Below, piece after piece: positions 43,775-49,817 of a stretch of DNA of 49,849 bases. The notes under the pieces are model-generated. The model was not told the origin of the DNA, searched no databases, and saw only the letters and a list, made by a program, of their open reading frames with translations. The position numbers were made by a program, and so were the translations under genes. The DNA comes from Candidatus Caenarcanales bacterium (GTDB taxonomy: Bacteria > Cyanobacteriota > Vampirovibrionia > LMEP-6097). The first letter of the stretch is position 1. Each line of letters starts with the position of its first letter. The DNA is taken from positions 1 to 49,849 of the forward strand of contig CANHDW010000003.1 of the NCBI GenBank assembly GCA_947459525.1, given 5' to 3'.

Positions 43775-44512
43775 ATGAATCAGGAACTAAAAAAAGATAT
43801 TCTCGTCATCGATGATGATCCAGCTATACTCGAACTTGTGAGTTTTAATCTAGAATTGCAAGGCTATAATGTTGAATCTTGCGATAATGCTATAGATGGC
43901 TTGGCGATGGCTTTTCAGAAGCCACCACATCTAATTATTCTTGATTTAATGATGCCTAATATGGATGGTTTTACAGCCTGTCAGCGCATTAGACAGAATG
44001 ATGTAACGAAAGAAACACCAGTATTAATGCTTACGGCTCTTAACCGCACTAATGATAAAGTGACTGGTTTTGATTCTGGCGCTGATGATTATTTAACTAA
44101 GCCTTTTGAGCTTCCTGAGCTTTTTGTGCGTGTTAAAGCACTTCTCAGAAGATCTGGAGCTATTACTTTAGCTCAGTCGATTCCTGAAGTTCTTCATTCT
44201 GGAGATATTACTTTAATGCCAGAATCTAGAGAAGTTAAAATCGAAGATAAAATTTTAAGACTTACGCCGATTGAGTTTGAAGTCCTACATTGCTTAATGC
44301 AGAATCATGGTCAAACAGTATCACCAGGTCTTATTCTTAAAGAAGTCTGGGGTTATTCACCTGAAGATGATATAGATACCATCAGAGTACATATCCGTCA
44401 TTTAAGGTCTAGAATAGAAGCTGGGGTTAAGAAGTATATTAAGACAGTCTATGGTGGTGGCTATCAGTTAATTCCAGAGGGATTTTTAAAGAGCCATTCT
44501 GGGGCAGTCTAA
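43775..44512 (+). CDS. rpaA: OmpR-family response regulator, RpaA orthologue
   Basis: ILVIDDDPAI, LHCLMQNHGQTVSP, EVWGYSPEDDIDTIRVHIRHLR and YIKTVYG resemble cyanobacterial RpaA. Confidence 0.85.
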   Translation: MNQELKKDILVIDDDPAILELVSFNLELQGYNVESCDNAIDGLAMAFQKPPHLIILDLMMPNMDGFTACQRIRQNDVTKETPVLMLTALNRTNDKVTGFDSGADDYLTKPFELPELFVRVKALLRRSGAITLAQSIPEVLHSGDITLMPESREVKIEDKILRLTPIEFEVLHCLMQNHGQTVSPGLILKEVWGYSPEDDIDTIRVHIRHLRSRIEAGVKKYIKTVYGGGYQLIPEGFLKSHSGAV

Positions 44513-44565: not shown

Positions 44566-44967
44566 ATGACTTTTCTTAAAAGATTATCTTTCTTGGTTCT
44601 TGCCTTAAGTTTATTCTTAACTGCAAGTCCCGTCTATAGCTCTCATGGAGCCGCTTCTAAAATTACTTCATCATTAATTTCTGTGCCTTTGGGTGGTTTT
44701 TTTGGTCTTGCACGTGGAGCTGTTTCTAAGTCTTCACAGTATGCTTCATCATTTTCTACAGAGTTCGGCGAAGGGTTGCTGCCAAGATTAATTGGTGTGC
44801 CAACGGGCTTCCTTATTGGTGGTGTCGCTGGTGGTGTGACAGGTCTTTTACGTGGTGTAATTAATGGTGTAAGTATTAGTCAGGACAGTCCCTTTTCAGC
44901 AGCTGCTATGAGCTTGGATGGTGATTTTATTGATTTCGATCCATATGATTTTAATGCTACATATTAA
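44566..44967 (+). CDS. glycine-rich exported or membrane hypothetical protein
   Basis: signal peptide plus GxxxG-rich helices. Confidence 0.65.
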   Translation: MTFLKRLSFLVLALSLFLTASPVYSSHGAASKITSSLISVPLGGFFGLARGAVSKSSQYASSFSTEFGEGLLPRLIGVPTGFLIGGVAGGVTGLLRGVINGVSISQDSPFSAAAMSLDGDFIDFDPYDFNATY

Positions 44968-46595
44968 TGCGAGCGATAGAGATTTACGATACTACACTTA
45001 GAGACGGTGCACAGATGCGGGGTATCTCTTTTAGCGTGAATGATAAGCTCAAAGTGCTGAGGCTATTAGATGATATCGGTGTCGCTTTCGTGGAGGGTGG
45101 TTGGCCTGGAGCGAATCCGAAGGATATAGATTTTTTTACTGAAGCGAAAAAGATTAACCTGAAAACCACTCAGCTAGTAGCTTTTGGCAGTACTCGCAAG
45201 GCTAATACTAAGGTGGAGTCAGATCCTATATTAGCTGCTCTTTTGCGAGCGGAAACTGAAGTGATTTGTATAGTCGGGAAAAGCTCTGCCCCGCAGGTTA
45301 CCAATACTTTAAAGATTTCCTTAGGCAAGAATTTAGATATGCTAGCTGAAAGTATATCTTTCCTGAAATCAGAAGGACGCCGAGTGATAATAGATGCCGA
45401 GCATTTCTTTGATGGTTATGCGGCTGATTCTGATTATTCACTTAAGTTTGCTAAAATTGCGGTGGAGGCTGGGGCTGAGACATTAGTTCTCTGTGATACT
45501 AATGGTGGTAGTCTGCCCGAGCAGGTTTTTAAAATTACTAAAGAGATTATTGAGGCTTATGATAAAAAGCTTAAAATCGGTATACATGCACATAATGACT
45601 GTGAACTTGCGGTAGCTAACAGCATTAGAGCAGTGAGAGCTGGTGCTACTCAAGTACAGGGAACTATTAATGGATATGGAGAACGCTGTGGTAATGCGAA
45701 TCTGATCTCTATAATTCCTAATTTAGAGCTTAAGTATAATGAAGAGAAATTAAAGTGTTTACCGAAGGATAAGCTAAAACATTTGAGCAGCCTATCCCAT
45801 GCTGTCGCTGAAATTGCTAATCAGCACCATAATGCTCATCAGCCTTTCGTGGGAGCTAGTTCCTTTGCTCATAAGGCTGGTCTGCATGCTAGTGCAATGA
45901 AGAAGCAGGATTTTAGTTATGAACACATAGACCCTGTTCTAGTCGGTAATGCGACTAAGATTATTATCTCAGAGCAGTCTGGGGTGAGTAATATACTAGA
46001 TTGGCTACAGAAGAAAAAGCTTTCTCCGAAGGCGAGTGATGAGATTATTGGGGAATTCGCTAAAACTGTTTTAGAGAGAGTGAAGAAGCTGGAGCACAAG
46101 GGATATAGCTTTGAGAATGCTGATGCGAGCTTAGAGTTAATGGTACGCAAGTTGATAGATGTAGAAGAGTCTGCTGAAACTAAACTCAAGGCTTATAAGC
46201 CTTACTTTAAGCTAGTGGAGCATAATGTATATATTTCAAATGGCGAGAAGACAGAGGCTACTGTGCGAATCCAAATAGCAGGTGAGGAAATTCACTCTGC
46301 AAGCGTGGGTAATGGTCCTGCTAATGCCTTAGATAAGGCTCTCAGAAAAGCTTTAGTAAGCTTCTATCCTAAGATAGAAGAGTTTCAGCTATTAGATTAT
46401 AAAGTAAGGATTCAGGATAGTTCACTTGGAACGGCGGCCCTGACTAAGGTTCAGGTTAATACTGGAAATTTGGCTGAGGATTGGGATACTATCGGAGTTA
46501 GCACTAATATTATCAAAGCCTCTTGGGATGCGATTGTTGACAGTATTGAATATGGCTTGATCAAGTATGGCGTTAAACCCGTTGAATTAGCTTAG
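44967..46595 (+). CDS. cimA: citramalate synthase
   Basis: YDTTLRDGAQ, GGWPGANPKD, DAEHFFDG, HAHND and GYSFENADAS motifs. Confidence 0.9.
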   Translation: MRAIEIYDTTLRDGAQMRGISFSVNDKLKVLRLLDDIGVAFVEGGWPGANPKDIDFFTEAKKINLKTTQLVAFGSTRKANTKVESDPILAALLRAETEVICIVGKSSAPQVTNTLKISLGKNLDMLAESISFLKSEGRRVIIDAEHFFDGYAADSDYSLKFAKIAVEAGAETLVLCDTNGGSLPEQVFKITKEIIEAYDKKLKIGIHAHNDCELAVANSIRAVRAGATQVQGTINGYGERCGNANLISIIPNLELKYNEEKLKCLPKDKLKHLSSLSHAVAEIANQHHNAHQPFVGASSFAHKAGLHASAMKKQDFSYEHIDPVLVGNATKIIISEQSGVSNILDWLQKKKLSPKASDEIIGEFAKTVLERVKKLEHKGYSFENADASLELMVRKLIDVEESAETKLKAYKPYFKLVEHNVYISNGEKTEATVRIQIAGEEIHSASVGNGPANALDKALRKALVSFYPKIEEFQLLDYKVRIQDSSLGTAALTKVQVNTGNLAEDWDTIGVSTNIIKASWDAIVDSIEYGLIKYGVKPVELA

Positions 46596-46652
46596 AGGGC
46601 TGCTTGCAATCTTTAAGGTACTTGTTGTCGAACTTTAAGCTCTGCATTTCTT
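46596..46652 (-). repeat. degenerate MITE end remnants after cimA
   Basis: AGGGCTGCTTGCAA and GTTGTCGAACTTTAAGCTCTGCATT resemble GCTGCCGAACTCCAAGTTCTGCGT. Confidence 0.45.
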
Positions 46653-46781
46653 AAAAAATTTTCATAAAAGATAATACCGTATGAAGGACTTTTAACTTTG
46701 TAATTACTAAATAGGGTTTATACTACTTCTTGTAAGCGTTTGATTGATTTAAAAAAAATTAGTTAAACGTGACTTCCTCAC

Positions 46782-46850
46782 ACTTTTCCAAGTTTATGTA
46801 TTAAATTTGGTTGGCAAGTCCTTAAAACACCTGAAATATTTTGAGGTGTT
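46782..46850 (+). ncRNA. putative structured leader RNA, copy 1, with SD-sequestering hairpin
   Basis: TTCCAAGTTT-ATGTATT-AAATTTGG-TTGGCAAGTC-CTTAAAA followed by the AACACCT/AGGTGTT stem. Confidence 0.55.
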
Positions 46851-46852
46851 GA

Positions 46853-47038
46853 ATGAGTCCATTTGTTTCTATTTTTGCGGCTGGTGCTTTAGGTCTTATG
46901 GGAGCTATGAGATCAGCTTCTTCTAATTTAAAGAGAAGTCATAATCCCCAACAAGATGAGCTTCCATTGGGCAATCAGCCTTCCCCGCGTTCACTGGCTT
47001 CATCTATATCGCAGTCCGCTGTATTGCGGCCAGCTTAA
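46853..47038 (+). CDS. small protein with a hydrophobic N-terminus (61 aa)
   Basis: GAGGTG SD; N-terminus resembles the ORF at 47632. Confidence 0.6.
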   Translation: MSPFVSIFAAGALGLMGAMRSASSNLKRSHNPQQDELPLGNQPSPRSLASSISQSAVLRPA

Positions 47039-47099
47039 ACCTAAATAAACTAAACACAATTAACAAAGGCAAGAATGAAAATTTTTGCTTTTGTTTTTG

Positions 47100-47215
47100 G
47101 AGGCTGATGTATAGTGGGATTGCTTGTGAAAATATAAGTTCAAGGCAATGCTCGCAAGTGTGCAAGTTTAAGGCGGGGGGGCGAATGACCGCAAAATGTA
47201 GCAGGCTACTTGCCT
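47100..47215 (+). repeat. cluster of degenerate MITE left-half remnants
   Basis: GTGCAAGTTTAAGGC...GCGAATGACCGCA matches the element interior; a second AAGTTCAAGG lies just upstream. Confidence 0.7.
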
Positions 47216-47245
47216 CTTTAAAAGATTAAATTATCCTAAACTCAC

Positions 47246-47274
47246 TTGCCTAGCTGCATTAGAGGCTGTATAAT
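47246..47274 (+). promoter_or_regulatory. sigma70-type promoter
   Basis: TTGCCT-N17-TATAAT, about 10 nt before leader copy 2. Confidence 0.65.
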
Positions 47275-47283
47275 AATCCTTCT

Positions 47284-47390
47284 ATAACTTTCCATGTTTC
47301 TGTACCAAACATGGTTGACGCAAGTCTTAAAATGTTTAATTTTTAAACAGTAATTGAATAAAAATCTTCAAATGTGTGAGGAGAGGTTTT
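47284..47390 (+). ncRNA. putative structured leader RNA, copy 2
   Basis: CCATGTTT-CTGTACC-AAACATGG, GAC-GCAA-GTC, TGTTTAA/TTAAACA stem, TGTGTGAGGAG. Confidence 0.6.
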
Positions 47391-47505
47391 TTATTTTTAT
47401 TGTTTTCTTTTGAGGTTGATTTATACTGATCGAGGGAATCTTAAATAATTATAAACAATATAGTAATTATAAAGTCTCTGTAGTATTATAGTAAAAACCA
47501 AATTA

Positions 47506-47605
47506 ATAACTTTCCGTGTTTCTGTACCAAATCCGGTTGGCGAGAGTCGTAAAACTTTTAAAAATTAAAAACTATAAATCTTATTTACTGTGTGAGGAGG
47601 GATTT
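47506..47605 (+). ncRNA. putative structured leader RNA, copy 3
   Basis: CCGTGTTT-CTGTACC-AAATCCGG, GGC-GAGA-GTC, TGTGTGAGGAG. Confidence 0.6.
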
Positions 47606-47635
47606 ATGTTTATATCTGGGGAGGTTCTTTTATGA
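47606..47635 (+). other. candidate 9-codon uORF MFISGEVLL
   Basis: AGGAGG 5 nt before ATG; its stop overlaps the next start (ATGA). Confidence 0.4.
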
Positions 47636-47793
47636 ACCCTTTGCTTATTTCTACTTTTGCAGCGTTAGGTGTTTATTTTGGTGCTGCTAGGTTGGCTCAA
47701 TCGGCTGCTTCTACTAGTAGCAATCAAAGTGCTGGTCTTAATGCTGCTCTTAAAAATAATCGTAAGGCAGCAATGCAATTGTGTGCATATTAG
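47632..47793 (+). CDS. small protein with a hydrophobic N-terminus (53 aa, not in the ORF track)
   Basis: GGAGGT SD; MNPLLISTFAALGVYFGAARLAQSAASTSSNQSAGLNAALKNNRKAAMQLCAY. Confidence 0.65.
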   Translation: MNPLLISTFAALGVYFGAARLAQSAASTSSNQSAGLNAALKNNRKAAMQLCAY

Positions 47794-47804
47794 TTCCGTA
47801 TCAT

Positions 47805-49817
47805 TTAGCTAAAAGCTTGAGCTAATTGCTTTTCCTGAGCTCTGTTTCTCAGTTGGGTTGTTGCTACTATGTTGTTAGCAGAACTAGCCTGAATTTTCTC
47901 TTTGAGCGTATTCTTGAGATTAGCTGCTGATGCGATGTTGCTCGTGAGATTAGAGTAAATCTTGTTAGCTTCTTGTGATTTCCTGAACCAATCTGTGACA
48001 TTAAGTGGGGTTTTTAGAATGCTCTTCACGGCTAGGAGCAAGGTTTTCCCGATGCCAGTATCTTTATAGCTTGCTAAGTGATCTGGTAATTCCTTGGCGA
48101 AAACTTCTTCTTCTTTATCTTTGAATAATCCAGGTATATCCTTCGGAGTGCGTCCTGTTATTTTACTTGTGATTTGTTGAACAAGCCAGAATGGACTCGA
48201 TGCTGGGCTTAATTTTATTACAGCTGGATAAGTACCCACTGCGGCGTGGAAGTTTTTACCCCACCACATCCAGCCTTTTTTAAGGACGTTTATAAGTTCA
48301 GATAGCGGAGGTTTTATTAATGAATGAGAAACGAATTGAGTATCATTGTCAATGGCTCTCTTCTCTGATTTTGGCATAAAGCTCTGTACGAAAGGTGGAG
48401 CGATGAATTCCACAAGCATATTCAATAGAATAGACTTGGTGGCAGGGTTCAATACCTCGCCAGGTAGTAGATTCGATAAGCCTTTCATGAAATTCTGACA
48501 CATCGGCATTAGTAGTTTTTTCGGAATAATACTATGGAAAATGCCCATAAAGGATTCGCCTTTGCGAACTGCCGTGTGTGCGTAGCTGGTCATAGCGGAG
48601 TCTATGCGGTTTGCGTTACTGAGTATCATTGAGCTAAAGGCTTTTAGCGGAGTATTTGCATCTTGGAAGCCAGTCGCTTGAGCTTTTTTATCTAGTGTGA
48701 GTGCTGTTAAGCCAAGGCTGGCTAGGGATGTTATGCCGAAATGAATAGGGTTGAATTTTGCGAGTGATTTAATTTCTTCTTTTTTGCCATAAGAGTTTGT
48801 GGCATAGATGGTTTGACCTTCTGCATCTTTTAGTATTTCACCAGGTGTAATGCCAAGAAGGTATTTATTTACATTATTAACAAATGGATCAAGGACTTTT
48901 TTAAGATTAAAGCCCGCCTCTTCTTTGACTAATTCACCATTTCCTTTATTTATAATCTTAAATTTTTTTTCGCCATTTTCATCTTCCCCTCTTATCCACC
49001 CGATTAGTTTAGCTACACCAGTGTCTTTCATGGCTTCGATTATGAGTTGCTGCTCAGGACTCACGTCACCTCCATGGTTCGAAGAATTCGCGAGTATGTT
49101 ATTCTCAGCGGTAATAGTTCTTAAAATAAAGGTCAGTGGTCTTGCGACCATGTCACCAATAAGCGTATTAATTATTGGATATTTTTTAGCAAAATGAGGA
49201 AAAACTCGACGAAAAGTAGCTATAGATTGATCTACGCCGATGTCTGTGATTAGGCGTGATAGGAATGAGTCAGAGAAGGTCTTTTCAATATTATTGTTTA
49301 AAGCGTTATATTCTATACTATTTGGGTCAATTTTTGCGCTTTCAAGCTTTTTGATCTGCTGAAGAGTTGCTTCTCTTTCCGTCTCCGAAAGGTTGCCGGT
49401 TTCAAGAAGATTCTTTAATTCTTTACAGTGCTCATCTAAATTGTTGGATAGCTTGGTCGCGTCACCTTCTTGAATGATCGCATTTACTACTGCTTCTGCT
49501 GAGGAACTCGTTAATAAAGCATTAGTCCAAGATTTTAGAACACTTTCCCAGACTGAATAAATAAAGCTTTTGTTCCAATTTCGCTCGCCATAATAATTAT
49601 TAGCATGGTAGCCAGATATCGATTTATCGTAGATAGGCTCTTTATTTTTTTTGTTAATCTTATCAGACCTAGCAGAAGAGACTTCTCCCTTTAAACCTTG
49701 ATTAAAAGCTTTAGCGGCGTTAAAAATCGATCCAGTTGGCTCTGGGCTTGTTGCAGTATTTGGATTTATTCCTTGTTCTAGAAAGCTCTTGTTTGTACCT
49801 ATAGAAGTACTAACCAA
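47805..49817 (-). CDS. hypothetical protein (670 aa)
   Basis: long ORF with TTG start and GGAGG SD; Ser/Thr/Asn-rich termini and internal hydrophobic segments; no recognised family. Confidence 0.75.
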   Translation of the reverse strand: MVSTSIGTNKSFLEQGINPNTATSPEPTGSIFNAAKAFNQGLKGEVSSARSDKINKKNKEPIYDKSISGYHANNYYGERNWNKSFIYSVWESVLKSWTNALLTSSSAEAVVNAIIQEGDATKLSNNLDEHCKELKNLLETGNLSETEREATLQQIKKLESAKIDPNSIEYNALNNNIEKTFSDSFLSRLITDIGVDQSIATFRRVFPHFAKKYPIINTLIGDMVARPLTFILRTITAENNILANSSNHGGDVSPEQQLIIEAMKDTGVAKLIGWIRGEDENGEKKFKIINKGNGELVKEEAGFNLKKVLDPFVNNVNKYLLGITPGEILKDAEGQTIYATNSYGKKEEIKSLAKFNPIHFGITSLASLGLTALTLDKKAQATGFQDANTPLKAFSSMILSNANRIDSAMTSYAHTAVRKGESFMGIFHSIIPKKLLMPMCQNFMKGLSNLLPGEVLNPATKSILLNMLVEFIAPPFVQSFMPKSEKRAIDNDTQFVSHSLIKPPLSELINVLKKGWMWWGKNFHAAVGTYPAVIKLSPASSPFWLVQQITSKITGRTPKDIPGLFKDKEEEVFAKELPDHLASYKDTGIGKTLLLAVKSILKTPLNVTDWFRKSQEANKIYSNLTSNIASAANLKNTLKEKIQASSANNIVATTQLRNRAQEKQLAQAFS

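Follow-up and report, generated by a model that had tools for sequence, protein, structure and literature searches.

The messenger RNAs (mRNAs) of type I toxins, such as tisB, zorO, hok and aapA1, have structured 5′ untranslated regions (5′ UTRs). Attenuation leaders carry hairpins that bind proteins, and examples of these are the PyrR binding loop, RAT/LicT and the ribosomal-protein leaders. In addition, the gifB 5′ UTR is reported to contain an aptamer for glutamine that controls the small protein IF17 (PMC6212724), and small membrane proteins of Clostridioides difficile are reported to be regulated by a cyclic di-GMP (c-di-GMP) riboswitch (PMC13724677). Here, we analyzed a window of 49,849 nucleotides (nt), which is the whole stretch of DNA under study, from the genome of a Candidatus Caenarcanales bacterium (assembly GCA_947459525.1, contig CANHDW010000003.1). 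An initial annotation of this DNA had described three copies of a structured leader motif in front of paralogous small proteins, and had proposed a new riboswitch-like or type I toxin-antitoxin (TA)-like system. The element has two helices, it belongs to the + strand RNA, it is conserved across the family, and it is located in a leader that is seen in RNA libraries. We consider it very likely that this element is a functional structured leader RNA.

The element resembles each of the systems above in part. The Glutamine-II riboswitch, or Downstream-peptide motif, and the cyanobacterial glnA RNA are likewise small structured 5′ UTR elements of short open reading frames (ORFs) in a cyanobacterial lineage, and, like the element, the glutamine RNAs are proposed to act on translation. 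The element differs from them in having no Rfam match even at E ≤ 10, in its UGUA loop and UAAAA tail, and in its non-photosynthetic host. Type I toxin mRNAs also encode small hydrophobic peptides and have long folded leaders, sequestered Shine-Dalgarno sequences (SDs) and tandem copies. However, no antisense or trans-acting small RNA (sRNA) was seen at the locus of the element, which is syntenic and core-like across the family; moreover, the peptides linked to the element have 49-93 amino acids (aa) and long polar tails, and its hairpin stands before an enzyme gene in another phylum. The PyrR, RAT/LicT and ribosomal-protein leaders share with the element an invariant loop, conserved closing pairs beside a terminator or an SD, and modular outputs, but the element has no family match and the genes downstream of it fit no known system. 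The case of C. difficile differs as well, because the element matches neither the c-di-GMP-I nor the c-di-GMP-II model of Rfam and belongs to another phylum.

The element and its two helices

The pattern TTTCCNNGTTTNTGTANNAAANNNGGTTG is found in the window at 46785-46813, 47289-47317 and 47511-47539, in all cases on the + strand and with 0 mismatches, which agrees with the three copies that had been placed near 46785, 47289 and 47511. None of 100 dinucleotide-preserving shuffles gave any match. In the genome as assembled (1.02 Mb in 48 contigs, 54% complete), these are the only three matches, and a reversed control pattern had 0. Copy 1, of type 1, corresponds to segment 46777..46829 (+), which was identified by the covariance model (65.2 bits, E 9e-14), by the pattern and by its fold. 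Its 5′ flank is CACACU, its first helix, P1, is made of CCAAGUUU and AAAUUUGG with one G·U pair, its loop is AUGUAUU and its tail is UUAAAAC. The second helix, P2, is weak or absent in this copy, where GGCAAGUCC cannot make the equivalent stem of 3 base pairs with a tetraloop. Copy 2, of type 2 (47281..47334, +; covariance-model match of 73.4 bits, E 6e-16), folds with a fully paired P1, CCAUGUUU/AAACAUGG, a CUGUACC loop, the P2 hairpin GAC-GCAA-GUC and the tail UUAAAAU. Copy 3, of type 3 (47503..47556, +; 74.3 bits, E 3e-16), has P1 CCGUGUUU/AAAUCCGG, which includes one G·U pair and one U·C mismatch, a CUGUACC loop, the P2 hairpin GGC-GAGA-GUC and the tail GUAAAAC. Apart from that mismatch, the compensatory changes that the initial annotation had seen in stem 1 are confirmed in the three copies, and the GCAA and GAGA tetraloops of stem 2 are indeed present in copies 2 and 3.

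In the genus of the window, the element has about 50 nt and comprises a U-rich 5′ flank, (A/U)C-UUU, followed by P1, a UU linker, P2 and a UAAAA tail. P1 can be described as CC-NNN-UUU and AAA-NNN-GG closed by a 7-nt loop, CUGUAYC. The CC/GG and UUU/AAA pairs are invariant, while the three pairs in the middle covary. Within the loop UGUA is invariant, and so is the UAAAA tail that follows P2.

Both helices are supported by covariation. In a model-based alignment (A4) of 51 distinct rows, P1 is paired in 95.8% of the cells, and three of its eight pairs vary on both sides, as AU/GC/GU, as AU/UA/CG/GU/UG and as GC/GU/UA. The covariation score of P1 was reached by 0 of 500 column shuffles, and pairing fell to 52-54% when the 3′ partner was slid by one column in either direction. 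A MAFFT alignment of 28 rows gave the same picture of P1. Alignment A4 was used for P1 only, as it misplaces the tail in several members with a long P2 (L006, L009, L011, L015, L022 and L082, where the matches stop early). For P2, 45 distinct sequences were anchored on P1 and on the UAAAA tail, and the pairs were counted inward by a script. The P2 region is 11-54 nt long and free in sequence. Its second pair is formed in 41 of the 45 rows (GC, UA, GU) and its third pair in 44, with six types of pair (GC, CG, AU, UA, GU, UG); for each of these two pairs, 0 of 1000 shuffles reached the observed count. The third pair is also the top mutual-information signal in an unbiased scan. This count per pair replaced an earlier test for a closing helix of at least 3 base pairs, which was too lenient, being passed by 34 of 35 distinct regions and by about 22 of 35 in shuffles.

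Pairs of the G·U type are frequent. They are found in 19 of the 51 rows at one pair of P1, and a U·G pair closes P2 in 29 of the 45 rows. On the other strand these pairs would read as A·C, and the helices therefore belong to the + strand RNA and not to its complement or to a palindrome in the DNA. A mutual-information scan for additional pairs, including pseudoknots between loop and tail, found beyond P1 and P2 only correlations that follow the leader types. A helix P0 of three pairs (UUU/AAA) and a triplex of the 5′ UUU, the UU linker and the tail were considered and set aside, because all the positions concerned are invariant and nothing can be counted for or against them. More generally, the invariance of the 5′ UUU, CC/GG, UUU/AAA, the loop UGUA, UU and UAAAA means that higher-order pairing among these positions is neither supported nor refuted.

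Among the genomes of the genus, sequence conservation is much higher in the leader than in the gene that follows it. In 8 genomes, the leader of copy 1 has a nucleotide identity of 92.8%, while the ORF has 69.1% at the nucleotide level and 49% at the protein level. The corresponding values for copy 3, in 7 genomes, are 92.0%, 65.1% and 45%.

Contigs from 4 metatranscriptomic libraries of 4 studies fall on the leaders and are consistent with transcription of the motif. Two of them cover 46748/46758-46856. One contig of 786 nt covers 47297-47424 and 47436-47642, and it thus joins the motif of copy 2 to the leader of copy 3, while another one covers 47402-47640. Two further contigs, from two studies, have their starts (47510 and 47514) where copy 3 has its 5′ edge, and they reach 47599 or 47657. 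Most of the contigs continue into dissimilar sequence beyond the start codons, since they come from relatives with divergent ORFs. Segments 46600-46731, 46864-47259 and 47700-47787 are not covered and, given this origin of the contigs, say nothing on expression there.

A search of the 4227 models of Rfam 15 gave only 2 transfer RNAs (tRNAs) in the whole window at the gathering thresholds. At E ≤ 10, segment 44000-49849 has 3 weak matches elsewhere and none over 46777-47556, and twelve related loci searched at E ≤ 0.1 gave only one unrelated microRNA match. The view that the motif follows no recognized riboswitch consensus is in line with this result. A shallow search of the literature found no description of the motif for Caenarcaniphilales or Melainabacteria. 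The initial annotation had named a match to a known family, a lack of covariation in a larger alignment and a lack of transcription as the outcomes that would speak against its proposal; what was found is no Rfam match, covariation in the larger alignment and coverage by RNA libraries.

Distribution among genomes and variants

With up to 3 mismatches, the motif was found in 25 of the 29 other genomes of the family of the window, Caenarcaniphilales. A covariance model built from 28 sequences with a short P2, named R1, found the same 25 genomes. In the other families of the class, R1 matched one of 121 sampled genomes (G068, E 0.009), and this weak match is probably due to chance. Each of the 6 other genomes of the window genus has three tandem copies, while most other genera have one. 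The three-copy state is thus a tandem expansion, at the level of the genus, of an element that is single-copy elsewhere.

A scan for the exact pattern in one genome per species, over 185,579 species, returned 30 loci, of which 26 have a context of the Caenarcaniphilales type, 2 belong to metagenome-assembled genomes (MAGs) of Ca. Scatosoma (Firmicutes) and 2 are chance matches in coding DNA. The same kind of scan in metagenomes gave 31 loci, 21 of them real, mostly from freshwater as judged from the run label, and 10 due to chance; viral contigs had 0 matches to the pattern. The loci rejected as chance pattern matches, for their coding location or poor stems, are L004, L005, L031, L032, L044, L057, L063, L067, L068, L072, L076, L078, L085, L087, L090 and L092. 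Four weak R1 matches in the order of Scatosoma (E 0.012-0.034) were rejected, together with that of G068, on the same grounds.

The two Ca. Scatosoma MAGs (L060/G151 and L035/G152) have the hairpin CAUC/CAGC-UUUCC-GCG-UUUCUGUAUCAAA-YGC-GGUU directly after a TTGATT-N17-TATAAT promoter and before a gene of the NT5C nucleotidase family. This hairpin lacks P2 and the tail. It has an additional lower stem, which differs between the two MAGs yet is paired in both, and which is followed by a run of 6-7 U residues. The variant folds into a hairpin before the U-run, but the consensus scan called no terminator. The hairpin was not found in the 149 other sampled genomes of the order of Scatosoma, so that 2 of 151 carry it. 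As read from these sequences, one and the same hairpin appears to be linked to different outputs, terminator-like in the Scatosoma lineage and, in Caenarcaniphilales, provided by leaders that sequester the SD.

Leaders, small open reading frames and neighboring genes

A consensus scan predicts a sigma-70-like promoter, TTGCCT-N17-TATAAT, at 47246..47274 (+), with 10 of 12 matches. It is kept in congeners as TTGATT, TTGCTT or TTGCCG followed by N17-TATAAT, in an alignment made by eye. The promoter-like site ends 14 nt before the TTTCC of copy 2; its presence had been noted correctly, and the distance had been put at about 10 nt, which is too short. In a consensus scan of the window for intrinsic terminators, none of the terminator-like sites overlaps the motif, which is not followed by a run of U residues either.

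Hairpins that cover the SD are predicted in all the leaders that were folded. In the minimum free energy (MFE) folds of leader 1, the predicted hairpin at 46826..46850 (+) is composed of AACACCU (46826-46832) and AGGUGUU (46844-46850), and it would bury the SD of the ATG at 46853, as had been claimed. This hairpin begins inside the UAAAAC tail of the motif. The same layout is found in the type-1 leaders L028, L074 and L016, and in leaders of this type 1-2 nt of the tail are also part of the anti-SD helix. An SD hairpin that starts in the tail, as these folds predict, is the usual layout of a translational switch. In leader 3, a hairpin is predicted at 47572..47609 (+) from the MFE fold (L001, position 2227, corresponding to the window). 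Its arms, AAAUCUU (47576-47582) and GGGAUUU (47599-47605), would cover the first SD, GAGGAGGG, and the start of an upstream ORF (uORF). This putative uORF, read from the sequence at 47606..47635 (+), has nine codons, MFISGEVLL. Its stop overlaps the ATG of ORF 3 (ATGA), and it contains a second SD, GGGGAGG, which is that of ORF 3. The nine-codon frame is retained in the congeners L025, L026 and L029. In genus g13, the same SD and ATG directly start the main ORF.

Copies 1 and 3 precede small ORFs, as had been stated. ORF 1 (46853..47038, +) has 61 codons for amino acids, with a hydrophobic N-terminus and a polar tail, and ORF 3 (47632..47793, +) encodes 53 aa, with a hydrophobic N-terminus and the C-terminal sequence ...RKAAMQLCAY; neither has a family match. 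Across the loci, the ORFs behind the motif encode 49-93 aa and consist of an N-terminal hydrophobic stretch of about 18 residues, a polar middle part rich in S, N and Q, and a C-terminus that is often formed by a basic residue and then ...L(C/H/S)xx or ...AA. Many of these peptides (L001-L091) end in ...LCAA, ...LAA, ...QAA or ...LHAA after the basic residue. Such ends are reminiscent of C-terminal degradation tags. Searches of Pfam, NCBIfam and PADLOC gave no match for the ORFs behind the motif, be it to a toxin family or to any other. The relatedness of the ORFs, which had also been proposed, could not be demonstrated by BLASTP, which gave no alignment between ORF 1 and ORF 3 or between the peptides of the different leader types. 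Alignment by hhalign of type 1 with type 3 gave a probability of 61.6% over 18 N-terminal residues, and that of type 3 with the single-copy genera gave 35.1% over 9 residues. The term paralogous would thus be used here on the basis of a common architecture and context rather than of demonstrable sequence similarity.

In comparison with congeners, copy 2 is an orphan leader whose ORF was deleted. The remnant of leader 2 (47335..47435, +; alignment A8 with a congener) contains the SD-like sequences GAGGAGAGG and GAGGUUGA, followed by ATA at 47423-47425, where congeners have ATG. About 255 nt, with the 54-aa ORF and the terminator hairpin of congener G002, are missing from this region (47335-47502), and owing to the deletion of the ORF and terminator, leader 2 runs into the region of copy 3. 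Copy 2 is probably co-transcribed with copy 3. Intact ORFs of 49-58 aa are found behind copy 2 in L027, L042, L081 and L088. G001 has the same deletion, but it has retained the ATG and 3 codons.

In the other genera, the order of the leader is a TGnTAnnAT element, AGAACC, 20-45 variable nt and the motif, which has the form (A/G)ACAUC-UUUCC-AAG-UUUCUGUAUCAAA-CUU-GG-UU(U), a hairpin specific to the genus, and (G)UAAAA(A). After the tail come 100-270 nt more of leader, the SD and the small ORF. A second conserved leader element, CCGUAACCGUU, is located about 60-120 nt after the motif in L006, L007, L065, L077, L013, L022 and L023, frequently within the loop that a long AGACAGC...GCUGUCU stem closes, and it is absent from the window genus. 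Another conserved sequence, GTAAAGACTGGACA, is found about 100-160 nt upstream of the motif in L008, L009, L013, L015 and L022, where the divergent glmU-like gene begins. Its minus-strand reading is ATG/TTG-TCC-AGT-CTT-TAC, and it could be the N-terminus of the glmU-like protein or a mini-ORF.

The gene order is conserved in these genera, with the glmU-like gene divergent upstream and the gene of a protein of about 370 aa convergent downstream. In the window, the convergent gene encodes a protein of 670 aa (47805..49817, -), which is part of the conserved context and lies outside the RNA. The C-terminal half of this protein is related to the protein of about 370 aa (BLASTP E 2e-6 over 113 aa), and members of this family of large convergent proteins were detected in 24 of the 30 Caenarcaniphilales genomes. 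For the 670-aa protein, Pfam, NCBIfam and PADLOC returned nothing but noise below threshold, and an Atlas search returned only hypothetical proteins of Melainabacteria, with scores ≤0.83 and TM ≤0.25. In most genera, the stops of the small ORF and of the convergent large gene are 0-20 nt apart or overlap by 4-13 nt (47793-47805 in the window; L006-L023). With stops that abut or overlap in this way, the mRNAs of the small ORF and of the large gene must overlap at their 3′ ends. In L007, the small and the large protein both end in ...AA. Further upstream in the window, at 44566-44967 (+), there is an ORF of 133 aa that matches no family and whose product would have an N-terminus resembling a signal sequence and a hydrophobic segment rich in Gly. 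This ORF is located between a gene for an OmpR-type response regulator (43775-44512) and a citramalate/isopropylmalate synthase-like gene (44967-46595).

Role of the element and alternative explanations

The account that we favor, with moderate confidence, is that the element is a new, lineage-specific, cis-acting leader RNA of genes for small membrane peptides, and that it acts as the sensing half of an attenuator whose effector is putative. A conserved trans-acting partner would bind the invariant loop, the junction and the tail, and this binding would change the folding of the remaining leader. Without the partner, the SD would be locked in its local hairpin, so that binding would gate the translation of the peptide. 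The existence and nature of this partner, as well as the direction of regulation, are what we infer. The RNA is nearly invariant and the peptides are hypervariable, and the partner is therefore unlikely to be the peptide itself; a protein, an RNA or a small molecule that is itself conserved would be expected instead. What the two phyla have in common is a simple hairpin whose loop does not vary, and for this reason we consider a macromolecule, either protein or RNA, a somewhat likelier partner than a metabolite.

Several points weigh against this account. The partner or ligand of the element, its binding and the switching are all putative. The genomes are related and not independent, and the shuffle statistics given above for P1 and P2 thus overstate the significance. 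RNAalifold, applied to the MAFFT alignment (A2), recovers 6 pairs of P1 at -1.13 kcal/mol and no P2, and the z-scores of single-sequence folding are modest, from -2.3 to +0.6. The architecture of the element is simple, as it consists of two hairpins, and any junction or pseudoknot would be putative. The contigs of the RNA libraries give neither the strand nor the true ends of the transcripts, and such libraries can contain DNA. In the leaders of types 2 and 3, about 30 nt separate the motif from the SD hairpin, and pairings that would exclude one another are not evident. Several MFE folds suggested that the 5′ CUUU flank forms a long-range helix with the SD. This helix was no better for matched pairs of flank and SD (mean of -4.34 kcal/mol) than for mismatched ones (-4.81 kcal/mol), and the matched value was equaled or surpassed in 1905 of 2000 permutations; the complementarity is a generic pairing of pyrimidines with purines, and the idea of such a helix was dropped. 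Finally, three genomes of g5 and g10 (L130, L131 and L132) keep the small ORF and the large gene behind a leader without the motif. At these loci, the synteny with the glmU-like gene and the promoter element TGnTAnnAT...AGAACC are kept, and the leader begins with ACCUCAAAAAAAGGUC...AUAAAAAUCCUC. As the genes are kept behind a different leader, the motif is replaceable and dispensable for the gene.

A metabolite riboswitch would be a particular case of the favored attenuator, and we judged it separately as a doubtful one. P1, P2 and the tail would form the aptamer of a small molecule or ion, and the ligand would engage the UAAAA tail and free or lock the anti-SD. This would be consistent with invariant nucleotides in the loop, linker and tail next to a stem of freely variable length, with the absence of a match to any known class, with the terminator-like platform to which the Ca. 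Scatosoma hairpin is joined, and with the overlap of 1-2 nt between tail and anti-SD helix in the type-1 leaders. However, no such overlap with the expression platform is evident in the leaders of types 2 and 3, nor in the leaders of other genera, which have 150-320 nt and more hairpins between the motif and the SD. In Caenarcaniphilales, the element controls a single gene family, which encodes hypervariable small peptides with no metabolic link, and its architecture is very simple, being reduced in Scatosoma to a plain hairpin without P2 or tail. The riboswitch-like character claimed in the initial annotation holds insofar as this is a structured 5′ leader RNA with covariation. The overlap of the tail with the anti-SD is seen only in leaders of the copy-1 type, the binding of a ligand is putative, and the associated genes are a single set for hypervariable peptides and not a coherent metabolic regulon.

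A related and equally tentative idea takes the P1 hairpin for a new sensor RNA common to Melainabacteria and Firmicutes, either as a riboswitch class or as a mimic of a tRNA anticodon arm. In the first version, the ligand would stabilize a junction or triplex made of the 5′ UUU, the UU linker and the UAAAA tail. In the second one, a conserved protein that binds or modifies tRNA would read the anticodon-like loop, whose first five bases we take to be C32-U33-G34-U35-A36 as in the anticodon loop of tRNA-Tyr. In both versions, the element would couple a cellular signal to the translation of the membrane peptides in one of the lineages; in the other, the signal would act on transcription termination ahead of a deoxynucleotidase gene.

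We regard a type I TA-like leader, the other proposal of the initial annotation, as unlikely. The hydrophobic peptides would be membrane toxins, their mRNA would be untranslatable due to its structured 5′ UTR, and an antisense or trans-acting sRNA would act on the leader. Peptides of 49-93 aa with a hydrophobic N-terminal stretch of about 18 aa, tandem multiplication within the genus with the loss of one ORF, and long structured leaders with predicted sequestration of the SDs fit this description, and a leader sequence more conserved than the ORF would be expected if a second RNA overlapped it. However, no antitoxin RNA or antisense promoter was found (the RNA contigs being strandless), and the sole promoter-like match on the minus strand is A/T-rich and no better than those in shuffles (4 promoter-like sites found against 4.4 expected). 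Neither PADLOC nor Pfam gave a match to a toxin family, and in Firmicutes the gene behind this hairpin encodes a nucleotidase. Across 13 genera the locus keeps its synteny beside glmU and the conserved large gene and is mostly present as a single copy, unlike TA loci, which are typically mobile and patchy.

It is less likely still that the element is passive and senses nothing, acting as a 5′ stabilizer, an RNase processing site or a ribosome standby site or enhancer that would set a constitutive half-life or level of translation. In favor of such a role, the element has A/U-rich single-stranded flanks and lies early in the transcript, about 8-15 nt (copy 2) or 25-45 nt (other copies) from the predicted start, and the two contigs that start at the 5′ border of copy 3 (47510 and 47514) could mark a processed end. 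However, the ends of contigs are not the ends of transcripts, and a stabilizer needs only a hairpin, whereas here a 7-nt loop, a linker and a tail have stayed invariant in 13 genera and in a second phylum. A DNA element, namely a promoter for an alternative sigma factor (of the extracytoplasmic function type, TGTAYC-N17-GTC) or a palindromic repressor operator, is highly improbable. In its favor, copies 2 and 3 contain the strings TGTACC-N17-GTCTTA and TGTACC-N17-GTCGTA, and the inverted repeat of P1 comes shortly after a promoter. However, the distance from loop to tail differs by over 40 nt between genera (P2 of 11-54 nt) and is 2 nt shorter in copy 1, so that there is no fixed spacing, the arms covary rather than keep a recognition sequence, G·U pairs are not palindromic in DNA, and the RNA-library contigs contain the motif itself.

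As a cis-regulatory leader RNA, the element is of a kind that is already known, and it would be more than this if its partner were a new ligand or a tRNA-binding protein. A metabolite as partner would make it a new class of riboswitch, while a protein would make it a new attenuation system. The element is delimited, and its covariation, its association with a gene family, its natural variants and a relative with another output in a different phylum make it tractable for biochemical de-orphaning. The Melainabacteria (Vampirovibrionia), in which it is found, are uncultured or barely cultured, and gene regulation in them is almost unexplored. The finding also draws attention to a family of fast-evolving small membrane peptides that was missed by all the protein libraries tried and that is tied to a conserved large protein.

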